Origin: an uncultured Methanosarcinales archaeon
GTDB lineage: Archaea; Nanobdellota; Nanobdellia; Woesearchaeales; CAZJJJ01
NCBI GenBank assembly: GCA_964583935.1
Contig: CAZOXV010000003.1
Location: forward strand, 5,463 to 20,406
DNA length: 14,944 nucleotides
Direction of reading: 5' to 3'
The notes under the pieces are model-generated. The model searched no databases. It saw nothing but the letters and a program-made list of their open reading frames with translations, and was not told where the DNA came from. This document shows, one piece after another, positions 136 to 14,345 of this stretch (its first letter is position 1; each line of letters opens with the position of its first letter). Both the position numbers and the translations under genes were made by a program.

Positions 136-421
136 TATAAAGAAAGAAGGTGCTTCTGTACTGTTTGTAGCATTCAACACTGCTCCTTGTAGAAAGTTTA
201 TGAACTACGCAAGGCAAGCTATTGGAATACTTGAAAGTAAAGGAAAGGAAATCTCTTATTTTCAAATAACAAATACTCCAGAAGTAAAGGAAGCTCTTCA
301 TATTAGTGCGATGCCAACTACAATCATTTATGTTGACGGTGAAGAGAAGAGAAGATTTGTTGGACATTTGTGGAGCCATTTTGAAATTGCTGGAAAGATA
401 AACGAGGGGATAAACAAATGA
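104..421 (+). CDS. Thioredoxin-fold protein in which the CxxC motif is degenerated to a single Cys (monothiol, TAPCRKF)
   Basis: ORF from the track. The protein aligns colinearly with E. coli thioredoxin as I remember it: VLFVAFNTAPCRKF matches ILVDFWAEWCGPCKM, and AMPTTIIYVDGEEKRRFVG matches GIPTLLLFKNGEVAATKVG. Confidence 0.6.
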   Translation: MSILEITNPSDIKKEGASVLFVAFNTAPCRKFMNYARQAIGILESKGKEISYFQITNTPEVKEALHISAMPTTIIYVDGEEKRRFVGHLWSHFEIAGKINEGINK

Positions 422-720
422 AGGTATTTTTAGATGATGAGAGACAAACACCAGAAGGCTGGAAGAGAGTTTACTGGCCTGATGAAGCAATAGAACTATT
501 GAAGACAAACAAAGTTACAGAGATAAGTTTGGATCACGACCTTGGTGACGACGAAAGAGGAACTGGTTATGATGTAATTAGATGGATTGAAATGGCTGTT
601 GCTATGGATGAATTCAAGCCACCTGTAATAAAAGTTCACTCTGCTAATACATCAGCAAGGCAGAAAATGGAACTTGGTATAAAATCAATTGAGAGGCTTA
701 GTAGAAACAATGAAGTTTAA
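418..720 (+). CDS. Receiver-like (CheY-fold) domain protein of the cyclic-phosphate-processing receiver (CPR) type
   Basis: The signature MKVFLDDER..PEGW…EISLDHDLG…GYDV..W…VHSAN matches my memory of the CPR domain family linked to RNA-repair systems. It overlaps the upstream gene by ATGA. Confidence 0.5.
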   Translation: MKVFLDDERQTPEGWKRVYWPDEAIELLKTNKVTEISLDHDLGDDERGTGYDVIRWIEMAVAMDEFKPPVIKVHSANTSARQKMELGIKSIERLSRNNEV

Positions 721-2203: not shown

Positions 2204-2450
2204 AGAGAAGAAGCTTGAGTTCTTTGATATGATGAAAGAACTTGCTGAACTACAAAGTAAAACTCCAGATGAGACATTGGCTAATCAGCTTGAGAGAATA
2301 ATAAATGGATTGCTGAGAGAAACAATGTCCTTAGAAAGTGCCATAAGGTTTGTGGAAAATAGAATAAAATCTGCTAAGAGGGCTGAGAGCATCGCTTTTT
2401 GGGCTACAATAACGAAAGTCATCAAAAAGTATTTTGAATTGATATCTTGA
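2193..2450 (+). CDS. Hypothetical helical protein
   Basis: ORF from the track. Its stop TGA (2448-2450) is embedded in the -35 TTGACA of the next promoter. Confidence 0.4.
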   Translation: MRNKEKKLEFFDMMKELAELQSKTPDETLANQLERIINGLLRETMSLESAIRFVENRIKSAKRAESIAFWATITKVIKKYFELIS

Positions 2451-2476
2451 CACACATCCGGTAATATGTTATATTA
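2447..2476 (+). promoter_or_regulatory. Sigma70-like promoter: TTGACA (2447-2452), 17 bp spacer, TATATT (2470-2475, TGtTATATTATAAT context)
   Basis: Direct read. This is one member of a six-copy promoter family in the window. AAGGAG and the pncA ATG lie ~30 nt downstream. Confidence 0.55.
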
Positions 2477-2505
2477 TAATTGAACAATCAAAAAAGGAGT
2501 TGTTT

Positions 2506-3045
2506 ATGAAGGTCTTTGTTGACGTTGATACTCTCGGTGACTTTTTCGAGGGTGGAGCACTGCCTGTCCCTGATGCCGACGAAATACGTCCTACTCTTGA
2601 GAAGATAACAAAATTCGCTAAGAGCCAAAAAATTCCAGTTCTCAAATTCAACGACTCACATGACGGGACTGAGCCAGAAATGAAAGCCAACGGTGGACCT
2701 TTTCCACGGCACTGTATGATTGATACAGAGGGTGCCGCAAGTATTCGTGAGACTTCGTGTAAGAATGCTCTTATCTTTGAGAAGCAGACTTACGATGCGT
2801 TTGATACAAAACTTGGAAACAAAAAGATTGATGGTTGGTTGAAAGAAAACAAAGTTACAGAAGCTTGGGTTTATGGAGTAGCTACTGATTGGTGTATCAA
2901 GGCTGCTGTTTTAGGTCTTCTCAAAAGAGGAATAAGAGTTTATGTTTTCAAAAATGCTATAAAGGGCATTGATGAAAAAGCATCCAAGCAAGCTATCGAT
3001 GAAATGAAGAAGGCCGGAGCATTGATGGCTGTTGCTAAACTCTGA
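2506..3045 (+). CDS. pncA: Nicotinamidase (isochorismatase-family Cys hydrolase, PncA)
   Basis: VDVDTLGDFFEGGALPVP matches E. coli PncA VDLQNDFCAGGALAVP (catalytic Asp). A conserved Lys lies in FEKQTYDAF. GVATDWCI matches GLATDYCV (catalytic Cys). ATG 2506 follows AAGGAG with a 7-nt spacer. The track start at 2500 is a TTG. Confidence 0.8.
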   Translation: MKVFVDVDTLGDFFEGGALPVPDADEIRPTLEKITKFAKSQKIPVLKFNDSHDGTEPEMKANGGPFPRHCMIDTEGAASIRETSCKNALIFEKQTYDAFDTKLGNKKIDGWLKENKVTEAWVYGVATDWCIKAAVLGLLKRGIRVYVFKNAIKGIDEKASKQAIDEMKKAGALMAVAKL

Positions 3046-3055
3046 TGGATAAAAT

Positions 3056-3265
3056 ATGAAAGTGAAATTTTATACTTATTGTGGTGAAGCAGGAGACCTT
3101 CAAGGAATGATAGTTGCTGAGATACGAGGGGGTATAAAGTTTCGAAGACTATTTACTCGTACTGGATGGTTTGCTTTGTGGAGTCTTAGAAGAGCCAAGA
3201 AAAAGTTGATGAACCAAATTGAATTGACGACAGGGCAGATGCCTGTTGAAGTTGAAAATTTTTGA
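3056..3265 (+). CDS. Hypothetical small basic protein
   Basis: ORF from the track. The RBS is weak. It fills the gap between pncA and nadE. Confidence 0.35.
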   Translation: MKVKFYTYCGEAGDLQGMIVAEIRGGIKFRRLFTRTGWFALWSLRRAKKKLMNQIELTTGQMPVEVENF

Positions 3266-3279
3266 AAGGAAGTTTACAA

Positions 3280-4134
3280 ATGAACTACGAAAAAGTCGCG
3301 ACAAACATTCGCAGAGAACTGGCGGATTATATTGTGTCTAATGGTTTACATAGTCTTGTGTTAGGAATATCCGGAGGTATAGATTCGGCAGTGTGCGCCG
3401 CTCTTGCTCGTCCTGTATGTGATGGACTTGGTATTCCTCTCATTGGAAGAAGTATCCCTATTCAGACTAACAAGGAAGATGAGCTTGACAGAGCACGGAA
3501 GGTTGGCAAGATTTTTTGTACAGACTTCAAAGAAGTGGACCTTGGTGGAGTTTACAGAAAATTTGAGGAAAGAATCCACATTGCTGAGAATAGGGAGAAT
3601 AGCAAGATTGCCAAAGGTAATATCAAGGCAAGAGTTCGTATGATTTACCTTTACAATATTGCTGGAATGAATAACGGTATGGTTTTGAGTACTGACAATT
3701 ACACCGAACTTCTTCTTGGATTCTGGACATTACATGGAGATGTAGGAAATTTTGGGATGATTCAGAACCTGTGGAAGACTGAAGTCTATGAACTTGCGAG
3801 ATACCTTGCTGATGACCTGAGAAATGATGCTGCTAAGGAAGCATTGAGAGCTTGTATTGCGGCAACACCCACGGACGGGCTTGGTATCAGTAATAGTGAC
3901 CTTGAGCAGCTTGGTGCTGATACATACGATGAGGTAGACAATATTCTTCAGGAGTACATTAAGTACGACAATCTCATGAAGAATAAAGAACTTCTTTACG
4001 ATGTAGAATTCGAGAATCGTGTCAAAGATAAGATAGAAAAGCTTAGGTCGAACCCCGTTATTATTCGTCACTTGACAAGTCAATACAAGAGAGAAGACCC
4101 GTATAACATTCCAAGAAACCTCATAATGAAATAA
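3280..4134 (+). CDS. nadE: NH3-dependent NAD+ synthetase (NadE, single-domain form without a glutaminase domain)
   Basis: PP-loop motif SGGIDS, and a length and architecture typical of NadE (~285 aa). ATG 3280 follows AAAGGAAG with a 7-nt spacer. The track start at 3262 is a TTG. Confidence 0.85.
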   Translation: MNYEKVATNIRRELADYIVSNGLHSLVLGISGGIDSAVCAALARPVCDGLGIPLIGRSIPIQTNKEDELDRARKVGKIFCTDFKEVDLGGVYRKFEERIHIAENRENSKIAKGNIKARVRMIYLYNIAGMNNGMVLSTDNYTELLLGFWTLHGDVGNFGMIQNLWKTEVYELARYLADDLRNDAAKEALRACIAATPTDGLGISNSDLEQLGADTYDEVDNILQEYIKYDNLMKNKELLYDVEFENRVKDKIEKLRSNPVIIRHLTSQYKREDPYNIPRNLIMK

Positions 4135-4143
4135 GGAGTGAAA

Positions 4144-4455
4144 ATGGCTGAAGAAAAAAATCAGATGACTGAAGAAGAAGTAAAAGAGTACGCTGAGAAG
4201 AGAAAGAAAGAATGGGAAGAATTTTACGAAGACTTGAATTCAAATCCAGATGAGCCTGTAACAAAGGGTGATTTGAAAAAAGCAGTCGATTTTCTTTTCG
4301 AAGATTTCGCAGCACTATCTCAGATGGTACAGATTAACTCTCACAATACGAATGTGCTCAATCAGAACTTCAATCAGATTGTTTCTGTGCTACAAGGTGG
4401 AAAACCAGGAATGCCTGGTGGACAAAGAACAAAGGGTGGAATAGTCCTTCCATAA
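4144..4455 (+). CDS. Hypothetical protein: acidic and helical N-terminus, Gly-rich C-terminus (GGKPGMPGGQRTKGG)
   Basis: ATG 4144 lies 5 nt after AAGGAG (4133-4138). The track start at 4138 is a GTG. Confidence 0.5.
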   Translation: MAEEKNQMTEEEVKEYAEKRKKEWEEFYEDLNSNPDEPVTKGDLKKAVDFLFEDFAALSQMVQINSHNTNVLNQNFNQIVSVLQGGKPGMPGGQRTKGGIVLP

Positions 4456-4465
4456 GGAAATTTAG

Positions 4466-5083
4466 ATGAAAAGAGTTGGAATATTTGGTGGGTCTTTTAA
4501 TCCACCAACCACTTCGCATAAAGATATTGTTGACGGATGTATAGCTAATGGAGTCGTTGACGAAGTTTGGATTATTCCTTCCAACAACCACACCCAGAAA
4601 AATAACAAGGTATCATTCCGTCATCGTGTGAATATGTGTAAGATAATGTTCAAAAGGTTGTTTCATCCTGTCAAGGTGAAGAACGACGACTTACACAACC
4701 ACTCCGGTAGAACATTTGATTTGATGAATATTCTGAACTTTCTTTACAACAGAACAAACATATACCGAGATAAGAAATACGAATTTTACATCATTATTGG
4801 AGAGGACTGTGCTGATAATATAGAAAGTTGGTATGAATGGGAAAGGTTGATAAGCGAGTATAAGTTCATAGTTGTAAAGAGAAACGACTACTTTAGACAC
4901 GATTCTAAAGATTGGTATAAAAAGAATCCTCACAAGTTTATTTCTATTGATGGATGCTGGTTTAGTTCCACATATCTTAGGGGAATGTTTAGTAAAGGAT
5001 ACTTCAATTTGGCAGCATTATTGACAAGTCCTAAGATAGTTAGGTATGTTACAAAAAATTCGCTTTACATTCAGGAGAAGTAA
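4466..5083 (+). CDS. nadD: Nicotinate-nucleotide adenylyltransferase (NadD-like NaMN/NMN adenylyltransferase)
   Basis: N-terminal nucleotidyltransferase motif GIFGGSFNPPTTSH is a variant of (H/T)xGH. YIIIGEDCADNIESWYEWERLISEYKFIVVKRNDY aligns closely with E. coli NadD [34 protein letters not shown]. There is a C-terminal ISSTxLR motif. Confidence 0.75.
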   Translation: MKRVGIFGGSFNPPTTSHKDIVDGCIANGVVDEVWIIPSNNHTQKNNKVSFRHRVNMCKIMFKRLFHPVKVKNDDLHNHSGRTFDLMNILNFLYNRTNIYRDKKYEFYIIIGEDCADNIESWYEWERLISEYKFIVVKRNDYFRHDSKDWYKKNPHKFISIDGCWFSSTYLRGMFSKGYFNLAALLTSPKIVRYVTKNSLYIQEK

Positions 5084-5670
5084 TGAGAATCAAAGATAAT
5101 AAAGTCATTTCAGAAACGCCTTTTCTCAAATTCAATAACACTGAGTATGAGGATAATCTTGGCAACACCAAGCATTGGGTCTGGTGTCAACGTCCTGGTG
5201 GAGTAAAAGCTGTTGTGATAGTGGCTGTAGTTGATAGAGGTTTTGTTCCACCGTGGACCGAAATTGGGTACAAAAGAAACCTGGGAATTGTTGTGATAAA
5301 AGAGAAAAGAATACCACTCAATGACTTTGAGTATGGTTTTCCCGCAGGTCTTGTCAATGAAGGAGAGAGTCCAATAGAAGCGGCTAAAAGAGAACTAACG
5401 GAAGAGACTGGTTTGAAAGTTAGGAGAGTCATAAAACACAGTCCTTACATTTACAGTTCTGCTGGTATGACAGACGAATCTGTGTCTATGGTTTATGTTG
5501 AATGTGAAGGTGATGTTAGTAGTGAATTCCTAGAATCATCAGAAGATATAGAAGCGTTCGTAATGAGCCAGCGAGATGTAATCAATTTACTTGAAGACCC
5601 AAATAAGAAGTTCGGTGCCAAGGCTTGGATTGTTCTTGATTACTTCGCTCGTAACGGAGATGTCATATGA
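5083..5670 (+). CDS. Nudix hydrolase, probable ADP-ribose pyrophosphatase
   Basis: Nudix box GLVNEGESPIEAAKRELTEETGL fits Gx5Ex7REUxEExGU. The start overlaps the nadD stop (TAATG). An AGGAG for this gene lies inside the end of nadD. Confidence 0.75.
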   Translation: MRIKDNKVISETPFLKFNNTEYEDNLGNTKHWVWCQRPGGVKAVVIVAVVDRGFVPPWTEIGYKRNLGIVVIKEKRIPLNDFEYGFPAGLVNEGESPIEAAKRELTEETGLKVRRVIKHSPYIYSSAGMTDESVSMVYVECEGDVSSEFLESSEDIEAFVMSQRDVINLLEDPNKKFGAKAWIVLDYFARNGDVI

Positions 5671-5704
5671 TAAAAGATTTACTTGATAAATTTGATGAAA
5701 ACTA

Positions 5705-5734
5705 TTGACGATTTTATGTGAATATGTTATAATT
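5705..5734 (+). promoter_or_regulatory. Sigma70-like promoter: TTGACG (5705-5710), 17 bp spacer, extended -10 TGtTATAAT (5725-5733)
   Basis: Direct read. The upstream AAAACTATTGAC context is shared with the other promoters. It drives the MVP-like gene. Confidence 0.6.
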
Positions 5735-5756
5735 GAATAAAGGAGTTTATGATGAT

Positions 5757-13508: not shown

Positions 13509-14345
13509 ATGGCAAGATCAATGCTAACTAACGACAAAGTCCGCGATGAGATTAACGGACTCATTGAAATGTTCAAGGAGCCTGAGTCTCTTGAGACAAT
13601 CGCAAAGTCAATGTTTCGTCGTGGTCAAGATATCCCTTCCGACAACTGGTCGATCCTCAACCGTCTCATTATGATGCGTCATGGTTCGATGGACGCAAGA
13701 GGTCCGAAGACTTGGTTCAAAATTGGGCGTAAGGTAATGAAGGGTGGCTCATTCTGTATCATTGCTCCAAAGATGTTTCAGATTCCTGAGAAGGATGAAA
13801 ACGGAAATCCTATTCTTGACAGTAACGGAAAGGAAAAGAAAAAGGTAATTCTGGTTGGCTTCAAACCAATTCCCGTCTGGCCTGTTGAGAAGACTGAGGG
13901 TAAGGAAGTCGACTACAAGATGGACAAGGATTTGCCTGAGTTCATGTGTAAGGAAGTTGCCGAAAAGTGGGGTATCAAGGTCAAGCAGACTTTCGATAAC
14001 CCATCATTCTATGCTTACTTTTCTCCTGAAAAAGGAGAAATCGTTATGGCGACTGATAACCAGCAAACATTTTTTCACGAATTAGCGCATTGCGCGGACG
14101 CTAAAGTTCAGGGAAAAATCAAGACTGGTCAGGACGAAGTCCAGGAGATCGTCGCAGAGTTCGGAGCTTCTGTACTTATGAGAATGTTTGGGCTAAAGGC
14201 AGGAACCAAGAATACCTATGAGTATGTCAAGAAGTACGCAGACAATCTCAGTAAGGACCCAATCGATGCCGTGATTCCTCTTGTTAGTAGGATTAGTAAA
14301 GTAATCGAGCTTATTCTCAAAGAGAGCGAAAATCTTCAAAAGTAA
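13509..14345 (+). CDS. ardC: ArdC-like antirestriction protein (N-terminal ssDNA-binding DUF1738-like domain plus C-terminal HExxH metalloprotease-like domain)
   Basis: N-terminal …WFKIGRKVMKGGS… resembles the ArdC-N motif W.TF.QA..LGG.VRKGEKG. C-terminal FFHELAHCADAK matches the ArdC FHELxH zincin motif. The overall length fits. Confidence 0.55.
   Translation: MARSMLTNDKVRDEINGLIEMFKEPESLETIAKSMFRRGQDIPSDNWSILNRLIMMRHGSMDARGPKTWFKIGRKVMKGGSFCIIAPKMFQIPEKDENGNPILDSNGKEKKKVILVGFKPIPVWPVEKTEGKEVDYKMDKDLPEFMCKEVAEKWGIKVKQTFDNPSFYAYFSPEKGEIVMATDNQQTFFHELAHCADAKVQGKIKTGQDEVQEIVAEFGASVLMRMFGLKAGTKNTYEYVKKYADNLSKDPIDAVIPLVSRISKVIELILKESENLQK

Follow-up and report, generated by a model that had tools for sequence, protein, structure and literature searches.

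The NadD-like and Nudix genes described here probably form part of a phage auxiliary-metabolism operon that, together with a separately placed PncB gene, would carry out deamidating nicotinamide salvage, the Nudix enzyme serving to clear ADP-ribose (ADPR). The analysis established which genes are present, which families and folds they are assigned to, that their synteny is conserved and that they come apart in a natural deletion variant; we infer the substrates, the direction of flux and an anti-defence purpose. The original prediction had interpreted the pair as a split version of NatV, the fused enzyme of vibriophage KVP40. As a homology statement this is refuted by the sequence comparisons, on which the pair can be likened to NatV by function only and not by ancestry.

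Gene content and organisation of the block

The window, by which we mean the whole 14,944-nt stretch of DNA analysed, contains the following genes and candidate signals:

418..720, + strand: cREC (cyclic-phosphate-processing receiver) protein (PF20274, 4.3e-29), a further ADPR-related gene of the island
2447..2475, + strand: sigma-70-like promoter candidate just 5' of PncA (TTGACA-17-TATATT, extended TG; 11/12 consensus matches)
2500..3045, + strand: PncA-type nicotinamidase (PF00857, 4.3e-26; PRK11609 nicotinamidase, 1.8e-20), likely true start ATG 2506
3056..3265, + strand: orf69, a small ORF between PncA and NadE (no Pfam or PHROG match)
3262..4134, + strand: NadE, NH3-dependent NAD+ synthetase (PF02540, 4.4e-45; TIGR00552, 139.5 bits, cut-off 63.65), likely start ATG 3280
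4138..4455, + strand: orf105, a conserved member of the module, likely start ATG 4144 (no PHROG match, weak sub-threshold Pfam match)
4466..5083, + strand: NadD ORF, 205 aa, NadD-family nicotinate(nicotinamide)-mononucleotide adenylyltransferase
5083..5670, + strand: Nudix ORF, 195 aa, predicted two-domain NUDT5/NudF-type ADP-ribose/ADP-sugar pyrophosphatase
8736..9230, + strand: NADAR-domain protein (PF08719, 7.6e-51)
11076..12293, + strand: PncB nicotinate phosphoribosyltransferase, the PRPP-consuming step (PRK05321, 472 bits, cut-off 379; TIGR01514, 407 bits, cut-off 269.55)

The genes from PncA onwards form a putative operon, PncA-orf69-NadE-orf105-NadD-Nudix, of which NadD and Nudix are the last two. 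By consensus match alone, the promoter-like site at 2447-2475 is its putative start, and the + strand from 2500 to 5670 shows no terminator-like site. PncA contains the sequences DSH...FPRHC, which we take to be the metal-binding signature, and ATDWC, presumably holding the catalytic cysteine. PncA, PncB, NadD and NadE all lie within 2500-12293 on one strand. The only phosphoribosyltransferase (PRTase) found in the window is PncB, which shows a weak match to the phage Nampt family phrog_448 (1.3e-8), and a Pfam/NCBIfam profile search found no Nampt among the window genes. Rfam and tRNA scans of the window gave no matches.

A block of PncA, NadE, NadD, Nudix, NADAR and PncB recurs in related loci, which carry L numbers here (L004, L005, L006-8, L041, L043 and L045). 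Among the relatives, L041 has no NadE nearby, and L044 and L040 have no NadD nearby. Homologues of orf105 adjoin NadD in L004, L005, L006-8, L017, L041 and L043, and NADAR lies adjacent to or near Nudix in L017, L005, L041 and L045. Among 21 IMG/VR NadD loci, only those of the close clade have this Nudix gene downstream; NadD genes of more distant phages have PncB, NadE, kinase or phosphatase genes as neighbours instead. Searches of GenBank phages gave no match by megablast with positions 2400-9300 and weak matches only by tblastn with each ORF (NadD 24-29% identity, Nudix partial), KVP40 not being among them. Joint acquisition of the pair from bacteria was also considered and is unsupported, the Nudix homologue P0104, from a 5.6-Mb bacterial genome, standing alone there and having no NadD neighbour.

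One relative, L017 (IMG/VR 3300005976_000005), is a phage of ~149 kb that is 92-97% identical to the window and carries clean deletions of NadE, the NadD interior and PncB. In its NadD gene 353 nt are swapped for 27 nt and the frame is shifted, while PncA, orf105, Nudix (98% aa identity) and NADAR are kept. Because L017 lost all three, NadE, NadD and PncB behave as one dispensable unit; because Nudix and NADAR are intact there, Nudix can be separated from NadD and has an equally close tie to NADAR. This retention shows that the main value of Nudix need not be feeding the NAD pathway. Nudix could instead act mainly in anti-defence alongside NADAR and cREC, degrading ADPR itself or immune signals derived from it (gcADPR isomers, His-ADPR, ADPR off ADP-ribosylated DNA), its link to NadD being incidental packing. 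Such a role would suit L017, where Nudix directly abuts NADAR and NadE, NadD and PncB are gone, as well as L040, where NADAR and Nudix overlap and NadD is missing. The presence of cREC and NADAR in the same island fits it too, as does the prediction of Iyer et al. (2022) that phage Nudix, NADAR and cREC proteins counter soluble ADPR signals (PMC9503650). We nevertheless consider it unlikely to be the principal explanation, since six lineages, the window and five others, retain the overlap of NadD with Nudix at NadD identities down to 42%, this Nudix clade is nearly always found near PncA, PncB or NadE (L044 included), and pocket residues like those of NUDT5 suit linear ADPR or ADP-sugars. It is compatible with deamidating salvage, the explanation that we prefer, and the two are not exclusive.

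The junction between the NadD and Nudix genes

Two elements were located where the genes meet:

5073..5077, + strand: AGGAG Shine-Dalgarno of the Nudix gene, within the NadD coding sequence
5081..5085, + strand: TAATG stop/start overlap (NadD TAA 5081-5083, Nudix ATG 5083-5085, 1 base common to both)

Reading of the junction (...TTCAGGAGAAGTAATGAGA...) confirmed two claims of the original prediction, that the NadD stop codon overlaps the Nudix start codon and that the ribosome-binding site of Nudix lies inside nadD; the spacing between AGGAG and ATG is 5 nt, which is optimal. The overlap by itself says little, since overlaps occur at 10 of the 25 junctions between successive genes of the window. 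The feature that exceeds chance is the conservation of the NadD to Nudix overlap across lineages. Adjacency in related phages had been suggested as a check, and NadD and Nudix are indeed kept as neighbours in five further lineages: in L004, L005, L007, L041 and L045 the Nudix start overlaps the 3' end of NadD by 4-20 nt (NadD identity 42-50% where measured). With the window included, the overlap lengths in the six lineages are 1, 4, 4, 14, 20 and 20 nt, and the sequences differ too. Purine-rich boxes equivalent to AGGAG are present 5-8 nt 5' of the Nudix ATG in L004, L005, L007 and L017. TAATG is unchanged in L017 although NadD is a pseudogene there, and in L043 one ORF, the orf105 homologue, stands between NadD and Nudix.

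The pair had further been described as translationally coupled. The two genes are tightly packed and their neighbourhood is conserved, but the pair is not obligate, as NadD is broken and Nudix intact in the near-identical phage. Because Nudix owns its AGGAG, coupling is probably facilitative and not obligatory. It is quite possible, though not the reading we favour, that the stop/start overlap has no regulatory meaning and that the adjacency reflects phage genome compaction alone. Compaction would account for the frequency of overlaps in the window, for the optimally spaced AGGAG, for the persistence of Nudix behind the L017 pseudogene, whose translation ends ~200 nt upstream, and for the ORF that parts the two genes in L043; it would account less readily for an overlapping adjacency conserved in six lineages with differing lengths and sequences. 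According to the salvage operon reading, NadD and Nudix would be co-expressed through operon membership and the 1-nt overlap.

The adenylyltransferase, the Nudix hydrolase and KVP40 NatV

Domain searches bore out the assignment of a nadD-like gene (PF01467, 3e-16; TIGR00482, 2.4e-29) and of a Nudix gene (PF00293 NUDIX, 1.9e-13). The match of the NadD ORF to TIGR00482 (NadD) covers model positions 1-194 of 194 at 102.8 bits, just under the 112.45 cut-off. All 17 matches in a PDB sequence search were NadD or NadD-like (one of them an unnamed protein, VPA0413), the best being B. subtilis 1kam (2.1e-14, residues 2-201). The motifs (H/T)xGH and SxTxxR, which we take to be the nucleotide-binding motifs of NadD, are present as P13-T-T-S-H18 and S167-S-T-Y-L-R172, and 20 relatives show no variation at the catalytic H18, at S167 or at R172. 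The full set of family-invariant residues comprises H18, D32-E-V-W35, R54, G112, D114, W122, R139, S167 and R172. The HxGH motif reads TTSH in the window protein; across the clade its first position is H, T or Q and the Gly is often Ser. By these matches the window adenylyltransferase is of the bacterial NadD type. Because PncA, PncB and NadE occupy the same block, its most likely step is NaMN to NaAD rather than NMN to NAD.

The signature of the second enzyme is encoded as follows:

5347..5415, + strand: Nudix box, residues G89-L111, GLVNEGESPIEAAKRELTEETGL, fitting GX5EX7REUXEEXGU

The fit is exact, and the box was rightly called canonical; E95, R103, E104, E107 and E108 do not vary across the 36 aligned family sequences. 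In the AF2 model (pLDDT 93.3), N-terminal strands (residues 2-36), matching a beta-sheet dimerisation domain, precede the Nudix fold. Human NUDT5 was matched at 3e-12 with the single sequence and at 5.6e-28 with the family profile, both domains being covered, and a Foldseek search with the model matched NUDT5 over its full length (E 1e-14, TM 0.78). All 50 PDB matches listed by Foldseek are to NUDT5, a Bdellovibrio NDP-sugar hydrolase, a B. methanolicus Nudix/ADPRase and the E. coli/Klebsiella ADPRase; the next Nudix matches after NUDT5 are NudE and the B. methanolicus, T. thermophilus and E. coli/Klebsiella ADPRases. We take W28, W46, R51, R84, L98, E112, E116 and E166 of NUDT5 to be its ADPR-contact and catalytic residues, E166 as the catalytic base. 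W46, R51, R84, L98 and E112/E115/E116 of NUDT5 align with W32, R37, R76, L90 and E104/E107/E108 of the window protein, all invariant in 36 relatives. NUDT5 W28 is replaced by F14, the sole mapped contact residue that is not invariant, and E47 by V; the invariant E154 was matched by eye, outside the aligned stretch, to NUDT5 E166.

As a heuristic, ADPRases are marked by a proline some 16 residues beyond the Nudix box. This position (NUDT5 P134) is A127 in the window protein, Ala in most relatives and Pro in few, for example P0019 and P0029. Scores against NCBIfam models all fall far below the cut-offs (NudE 39.2/169, NudF 34.1/248, YffH/AdpP 30.5/79.55 bits), identity to the nearest characterised relative is about 25%, and residues ~51-66 are a clade-specific insertion. 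By sequence, the protein belongs to a distinct clade and is no equivalog of the E. coli enzymes; its predicted identity is a NUDT5/NudF-type two-domain ADP-ribose/ADP-sugar pyrophosphatase. An NrtR-like Nudix regulator was ruled out, as the protein is 195 aa long, lacks an HTH domain and keeps its catalytic residues; so was an NAD+ diphosphatase of the NudC type.

E. coli NudE takes NADH and Ap3A besides ADPR. The NudE 'ADP compounds hydrolase' is the best NCBIfam match of Nudix (4.9e-10), and among the PDB families matched by the Nudix profile NudE 1vhg ranks second (3e-16). Nudix might on this footing be a brake on the pathway, hydrolysing NAD(H), NaAD or Ap3A in the manner of NudE or NudC and thereby tuning the dinucleotides of NadD and NadE; Iyer et al. 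have suggested that the Nudix of NadM regulates NAD+ (PMC9503650). We hold this to be highly improbable. The longest and strongest matches of Nudix are to ADP-sugar/ADPR enzymes, that to NudC is marginal (E 0.0036) and covers the Nudix box alone, and co-expression is hard to square with destruction of the product of a costly four-gene pathway.

The NatV sequence used for alignment was KVP40.0162 (L016:44508-45533); KVP40.0211, annotated 'nadR', was ruled out as NatV, its domains being NMNAT and AAA_28. NatV is a NadM-Nudix protein that matches PDB 2qjo (7e-51) and 2qjt (9e-45), PRK05379 (272 bits) and phrog_395 (4.5e-85) over its full length, and it also matches archaeal NMNAT structures. Alignment of both ORFs to the NatV halves, the check proposed for the split NatV claim, gave similarity confined to superfamily motifs: the NadD alignment to NatV is limited to the N-terminal HIGH-motif region (BLASTP E=2; hhalign probability 25% over 59 columns) and that of Nudix to the Nudix box (BLASTP, 46 aa; hhalign, 37 columns). 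The best BLASTP HSP between NadD and NatV (E 0.003) is spurious, pairing the middle of NadD with the Nudix domain of NatV. Neither window protein matched any PRK05379 model at E<=0.01, NadD meets phrog_395 at residues 3-71 only (1.4e-5), and Nudix had no phrog_395 match in the PHROG search. No NadM-Nudix chain occurs among the 50 listed fold matches or the 60 shown profile matches of Nudix. The adenylyltransferase and the Nudix protein of the window are two separate ORFs and not one polypeptide.

We therefore regard it as very unlikely that the pair is the unfused evolutionary counterpart of NadM-Nudix, catalysing the same reactions (NMN to NAD+; ADPR to AMP and ribose-5-phosphate, R5P). NatV and the pair have in common the HIGH motif of nucleotidyltransferases and the Nudix box, the order is the same (adenylyltransferase, then Nudix) and the ADPR-hydrolase half is functionally plausible; but the likeness stops at these generic motifs, NatV has full-length family matches that the window proteins lack, and the NMN-making Nampt/NadV is absent, PncA, PncB and NadE pointing to the NaMN route. 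Of the claim that the two activities of NatV are encoded here, what stands is the presence of an adenylyltransferase gene and an ADPR-pyrophosphatase-type Nudix gene; the presumed NMN to NAD reaction gives way to NaMN to NaAD as the likelier one. By these comparisons the same functional pairing arose here separately, out of branches of the two superfamilies that are unrelated to those of NatV. A tempting annotation shortcut is thus corrected: a phage with 'adenylyltransferase + Nudix' does not necessarily encode NatV.

Proposed pathway and comparison with known systems

In the proposed pathway, PncA would convert nicotinamide to nicotinate, from which PncB, encoded 5.4 kb downstream of the operon, would make NaMN with PRPP. 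NadD would then convert NaMN and ATP to NaAD, and NadE would convert NaAD, ATP and NH3 to NAD+. Nudix, as a homodimer, would most likely split free ADPR into AMP and R5P. This ADPR could come both from NADase defence effectors, as their second product, and from NADAR-type de-ADP-ribosylation. Its cleavage would remove a reactive or inhibitory by-product, and carbon and adenylate might return to the PRPP/ATP pools used by PncB, NadD and NadE, host Prs and adenylate kinase being required; R5P to PRPP would depend on the host because no Prs was found among the window ORFs scanned. The role in NAD+/ADPR metabolism originally linked to PncB is plausible, with this PRPP-consuming step encoded nearby. 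More tentatively, and with less confidence than in salvage itself, PncA-NadE-orf105-NadD-Nudix with PncB and NADAR may add a fourth pathway, with a mechanism of its own, to those by which phages reconstitute NAD+. By the deamidated route it would use both NADase products (nicotinamide via PncA/PncB; ADPR via Nudix to AMP and R5P, and on to ATP and PRPP) and defeat NAD+-depleting defences, among them Thoeris, DSR, Sir2-HerA and RES, with orf105 as an accessory factor.

Reconstitution of NAD+ by phages counters NADase immunity (bioRxiv 10.1101/2024.02.11.579819; PMC13464706) and is a current topic of phage-bacterium conflict. Three routes, NARP1-3, are experimentally defined, and none of them uses NadD, NadE, PncA or PncB; no paper on a 'NARP4' was found in the literature, and NadD goes unmentioned in a 2022 survey of viral NAD+ systems (PMC9503650). 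The locus is a variant of known phage NAD+ salvage and a compact, conserved candidate for a deamidating route in which one enzyme is dedicated to clearing ADP-ribose; for this candidate the near-identical phage without exactly NadE, NadD and PncB is a ready natural control.

NARP1 (Adps + Namat) and NARP3 (PnuC + NadR) likewise rebuild NAD+ after NADase attack. However, NARP1 re-uses ADPR directly through ADPR-PP, whereas the window route would dismantle it to AMP and R5P, and NARP3 imports nicotinamide riboside, unlike the window route; no Adps, Namat, PnuC or NadR homologues were identified among the window ORFs scanned. NARP2 (Nampt + Nmnat) is represented by KVP40 NadV + NatV, a pathway that counters an NAD+-depleting defence (bioRxiv 10.1101/2024.02.11.579819). 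It resembles the locus as phage NAD+ salvage from nicotinamide with an adenylyltransferase and an ADPR-type Nudix. In KVP40, NadM and a NadM-type Nudix domain are fused and two steps lead via NMN; in the window, two genes encode NadD and a NUDT5/NudF-type two-domain Nudix, and the route would take four deamidated steps (PncA, PncB, NadD, NadE), with PncB as the only PRTase in place of NadV/Nampt.

With human NUDT5 and bacterial NudF/ADPRase, the window Nudix shares the N-terminal beta-domain and Nudix fold, the box, counterparts of the ADPR-binding Trp and Arg residues and the catalytic Glu; it differs from NUDT5 in its ~25% identity, the insertion at ~51-66, W28 to F, E47 to V and A127 in place of the marker proline. 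The bacterial PncA-PncB-NadD-NadE branch (Preiss-Handler) draws on these four enzyme families too and in an identical logical order, but in the window a phage carries the genes as a cluster, most of them in a single operon, with ADPRase, NADAR and cREC attached. Phage-encoded Preiss-Handler genes clustered as a unit are also known from the 'NAD-jumbo phages' (>200 kb), for which pncB-nadD-nadE clusters were reported on bioinformatic grounds (Microbiome 2024; PMC11662467). For that cluster only pncB, nadD and nadE are named, with 0 occurrences of Nudix and 0 of NADAR in the report, whereas the relative described here is a phage of ~149 kb and the module adds PncA, the ADPRase and the conserved orf105.

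The NAD gene set and the NadD/Nudix junction

The genes of the window all lie on one strand in a phage-like run, and the presence of PncA, PncB, NadD and NadE among them indicates that the entire deamidating nicotinamide-to-NAD+ pathway is present.

Features of the window (coordinates, strand, description)
418-720, +, cREC (cyclic-phosphate-processing receiver) protein (PF20274, 4.3e-29)
689-1309, +, DUF6557 protein (5.7e-28), following the cREC gene
1838-2203, +, CxxCxxCC zinc/iron-chelating-domain protein, flanking the NAD island
2500-3045, +, PncA nicotinamidase (PF00857, 4e-26), with recognisable WPxHC-like and catalytic-Cys motifs
3056-3265, +, orf69, without Pfam or PHROG match
3262-4134, +, NadE, NH3-type (139.5 bits, exceeding the cut-off)
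4138-4455, +, orf105, without PHROG match, one weak sub-threshold Pfam hit
4466-5083, +, NadD ORF, 205 aa (PF01467, 3e-16; TIGR00482 over its whole length)
5073-5077, +, AGGAG upstream of the Nudix ATG
5081-5083, +, TAA, NadD stop
5083-5085, +, ATG, Nudix start, overlapping the NadD stop by 1 nt
5083-5670, +, Nudix ORF, 195 aa (PF00293, 1.9e-13), textbook Nudix box at residues 89-111
5757-8672, +, major vault protein (MVP) homologue, 971 aa (MVP_shoulder 5e-27, Vault_3 2.5e-10)
8736-9230, +, NADAR protein (7.6e-51)
11076-12293, +, PncB (472 bits; cut-off 379)
13509-14345, +, MPTase-PolyVal zincin-like protein (weak), flanking the NAD island

A promoter-like site (2447-2475, 11/12 consensus) is located directly 5' of PncA, and no terminator-like hairpin was found on the + strand between this site and the Nudix stop; PncA-orf69-NadE-orf105-NadD-Nudix thus plausibly form a single transcription unit. 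Read directly in the window, the NadD/Nudix junction is TTCAGGAGAAGTAATGAGA. The overlap, the position of AGGAG and the canonical Nudix box were found in the sequence and ORF reading as originally predicted. Since 10 of the 25 consecutive gene junctions in the window overlap, the overlap alone is unremarkable; it would probably aid co-expression of NadD and Nudix, and the Nudix gene has an independent Shine-Dalgarno sequence besides.

The small ORF orf105 encodes an acidic, coiled-coil-like product of ~100 aa. It adjoins NadD in most relatives examined, is absent in locus L045, lies between NadD and Nudix in locus L043 and is kept in the deletion variant L017; orf105 may thus belong to the NAD module without having been recognised as part of it. 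A DUF6557 gene also precedes the NAD module in L006, L041 and L045, and both genes flanking the NAD island are syntenic in L041.

The MVP gene belongs to a self-contained cassette (5705-8719) between the Nudix and NADAR genes, with its own promoter-like site (5705-5733, 11/12) and a strong terminator hairpin (8694-8719). The homologue matched no PHROG family, and its matches among GenBank phages are limited to three 'huge phage' records (~45% identity), one of which, LR756501, carries NadD ~12 kb from MVP; MVP homologues number more than 5,800, many of them bacterial. In a 2026 preprint, a NADase domain of bacterial immunity has reportedly been linked to the vault protein TEP1, so a connection of MVP to NADase immunity is conceivable. 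As an upstream ATG of the NADAR ORF (8688) falls within the MVP terminator hairpin, the real NADAR start is probably ATG 8736 (MKFTFF...).

Identity of NadD and Nudix and relation to NatV

Against TIGR00482 the NadD ORF scored slightly below the cut-off (E 2.4e-29; 102.8 bits, cut-off 112.45), and its structure matches were exclusively of the NadD type (best 1kam, 2e-14). The HIGH motif reads TTSH in the window, the first position being H, T or Q across the family and the second His (H18) being invariant in the family alignment. Together with the further invariants (DEVW 32-35, R54, G112, D114, W122, R139 and S167/R172 of SxTxxR), this fits an active nucleotidyltransferase. Because PncA, PncB and NadE are present and no Nampt was found, the context favours NaMN over NMN as substrate, two compounds between which the NadD sequence cannot discriminate.

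The closest solved relative of the Nudix protein by sequence is human NUDT5, an ADP-sugar pyrophosphatase (3e-12, residues 6-147 including the N-terminal domain). With a Nudix family profile this match improved to 5.6e-28, followed by NudE, the B. methanolicus ADPRase/activator and the T. thermophilus and E. coli ADPRases. A confident AlphaFold2 model built from a 36-sequence alignment (pLDDT 93.3) again placed NUDT5 first in a Foldseek search of the PDB (E 1e-14, TM 0.78, full length), ahead of a Bdellovibrio NDP-sugar hydrolase, a B. methanolicus Nudix and the E. coli/Klebsiella ADPRases; the 50 matches listed contain no NadM-Nudix chain. The ADPR-contacting residues of NUDT5 (W28, W46, R51, R84, L98 and E112/E115/E116) correspond in the pairwise alignment to F14, W32, R37, R76, L90 and E104/E107/E108, and E154, outside the aligned stretch, was paired by eye with the catalytic base E166. 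F14 excepted, all these counterparts are invariant across the family. As the protein falls far short of the NudE, NudF and YffH cut-offs of NCBIfam and has an alanine (A127) at the marker-proline position downstream of the Nudix box, it is filed as a distinct clade of putative NUDT5/NudF-type ADP-ribose/ADP-sugar pyrophosphatases.

The original prediction likened the pair to a split form of NatV, the adenylyltransferase-Nudix fusion of vibriophage KVP40. NatV was located in NC_005083 (KVP40.0162, L016:44508-45533) and had the domains expected of it (CTP_transf_like, residues 5-58; NUDIX, residues 211-337). When the window NadD was compared with NatV by BLASTP, the match was insignificant (E=2, HIGH-motif region alone), and a second HSP (E 0.003), aligned to the wrong domain, was rejected as spurious; a NadD family profile of 20 sequences reached 25% probability over 59 N-terminal columns. 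The window Nudix aligned over 46 residues in the region of the Nudix box, and its 36-sequence profile over 37 columns. NatV itself matched the NadM-Nudix structures 2qjo (7e-51) and 2qjt (9e-45), archaeal NMNATs, PRK05379 models (272 bits) and phrog_395 (4.5e-85); the window NadD reached phrog_395 at residues 3-71 alone, and the window Nudix matched neither phrog_395 nor, at E<=0.01, PRK05379. Combined, these short motif-region alignments and the independent classification indicate that the pair is not a split NatV. Instead, the same general activities have been brought together independently, from other branches of the two superfamilies. The original interpretation is partly supported: the functional analogy to NatV stays plausible, and homology to NatV and NMN chemistry are unsupported.

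Conservation and separability of the pair

The exact window proteins are present on a 20.4-kb NCBI contig, and the adjacency recurred, with overlapping genes, in several related loci.

NadD and Nudix in related loci
L004: NadD 49% identical; Nudix start and NadD 3' end overlap by 20 nt
L005: NadD 42% identical; overlap of 4 nt
L006-8: NadD 46% identical; overlap of 14 nt
L041/42: overlap of 20 nt
L045: overlap of 4 nt
L043: orf105 homologue separates NadD from Nudix
L044: Nudix alone, no NadD nearby; PncB-NadE 2.3 kb away
L040 (5498-6597): NADAR and Nudix overlap by 4 nt, no NadD nearby

Where NadD and Nudix overlap, the genes are ordered PncA ... NadE-orf105-NadD-Nudix, then usually NADAR and PncB, and a purine-rich box lies 5-8 nt 5' of every Nudix start. 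Among 21 IMG/VR NadD loci, this Nudix is found downstream of NadD in the close clade only, and a 48%-identical Nudix stands alone in one 5.6-Mb bacterial genome. The NADAR/Nudix overlap in L040 points to a functional link between these two. A more distant phage-like NadD (P0137) occurs on ENA/Logan contigs L009-L011 in a conserved NadE(Gln)-BtpA-PP2C phosphatase-NadD-Ser/Thr kinase cluster, near a TnpB/IS605 element, UDG and a LAGLIDADG endonuclease. NadE is glutamine-dependent in L004 and L009 (CN_hydrolase + NAD_synthase, 552-660 aa) and of the NH3-type in the window, L043 and L045; L041 has a Laminin_G_3 protein at the NadE position.

The relative L017 (IMG/VR 3300005976_000005, 149 kb) is 92-97% identical to the window in nucleotide sequence and lacks four cleanly deleted segments.

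Segments missing from L017 (window coordinates)
2952-4108: NadE
4550-4902: NadD interior, 353 nt swapped for 27 nt
5696-8725: MVP cassette
9481-12262: 2.8 kb including PncB

The NadD remnant, MKKVGIFGGSFNPPTISHKDIADGCIANSTNSKGK*, is a pseudogene with its C-terminal part in a different frame. PncA, orf105, cREC and NADAR are kept, the AGGAG...TAATG junction is intact, and so is the Nudix gene (98% identical). L017 thus amounts to a naturally occurring knockout of NAD building, and the joint loss of NadE, NadD and PncB is what membership of a single pathway would lead one to expect. Retention of Nudix without NadD argues that its function and translation are independent of NadD, and that Nudix is tied to NADAR no less strongly than to NadD.

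Proposed route and known NAD+ pathways

The analysis shows which genes and families are present, the fold, the operon-like arrangement, the conservation of synteny and the separability of the pair; the chemistry inferred would run as follows. PncA would deamidate the nicotinamide that NADases release, PncB would consume PRPP to form NaMN, NadD would adenylate NaMN to NaAD, and NadE would amidate NaAD to NAD+. Nudix would cleave ADP-ribose, supplied by NADases and by NADAR-mediated de-ADP-ribosylation, into AMP and ribose-5-phosphate; this could serve both detoxification and recycling into PRPP and ATP via host Prs and Adk, no Prs gene having been found among the scanned window ORFs. The cREC family is predicted to process cyclic ADPR derivatives (Iyer et al. 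2022, PMC9503650).

The same survey gives the enzymes of NAD+ synthesis in phages as NadV, NadM and NadR, leaves NadD unmentioned and describes phage Nudix domains as mostly of the T4 NudE or NadM type (PMC9503650). Jumbo phages with pncB-nadD-nadE clusters are described in a survey from 2024 that includes no experiments and does not mention a Nudix (PMC11662467), and a literature search for 'NARP4' found no paper. The locus is valuable mainly because it offers a clean candidate, open to testing, for a phage route that would reconstitute NAD+ by deamidation and has its own predicted ADPR hydrolase; L017 adds a natural loss variant of the same locus.

Three phage NAD+ reconstitution pathways are known: NARP1 (Adps and Namat) and NARP2 (Nampt and Nmnat of KVP40; bioRxiv 10.1101/2024.02.11.579819), and NARP3 (PnuC and NadR; PMC13464706). 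Besides NadV and NatV, KVP40 encodes a NadR-like NMNAT + AAA_28 protein of the ribosylnicotinamide-kinase type (KVP40.0211, L014:13615-14595) and, ~1 kb downstream, an annotated PnuC-like transporter (KVP40.0215, L014:15550-16215), the same gene pair as defines NARP3. None of NARP1-3 employs PncA, PncB, NadD or NadE. The window locus has all four; by comparison with the literature it is a variant of known phage NAD+ salvage rather than a new kind.
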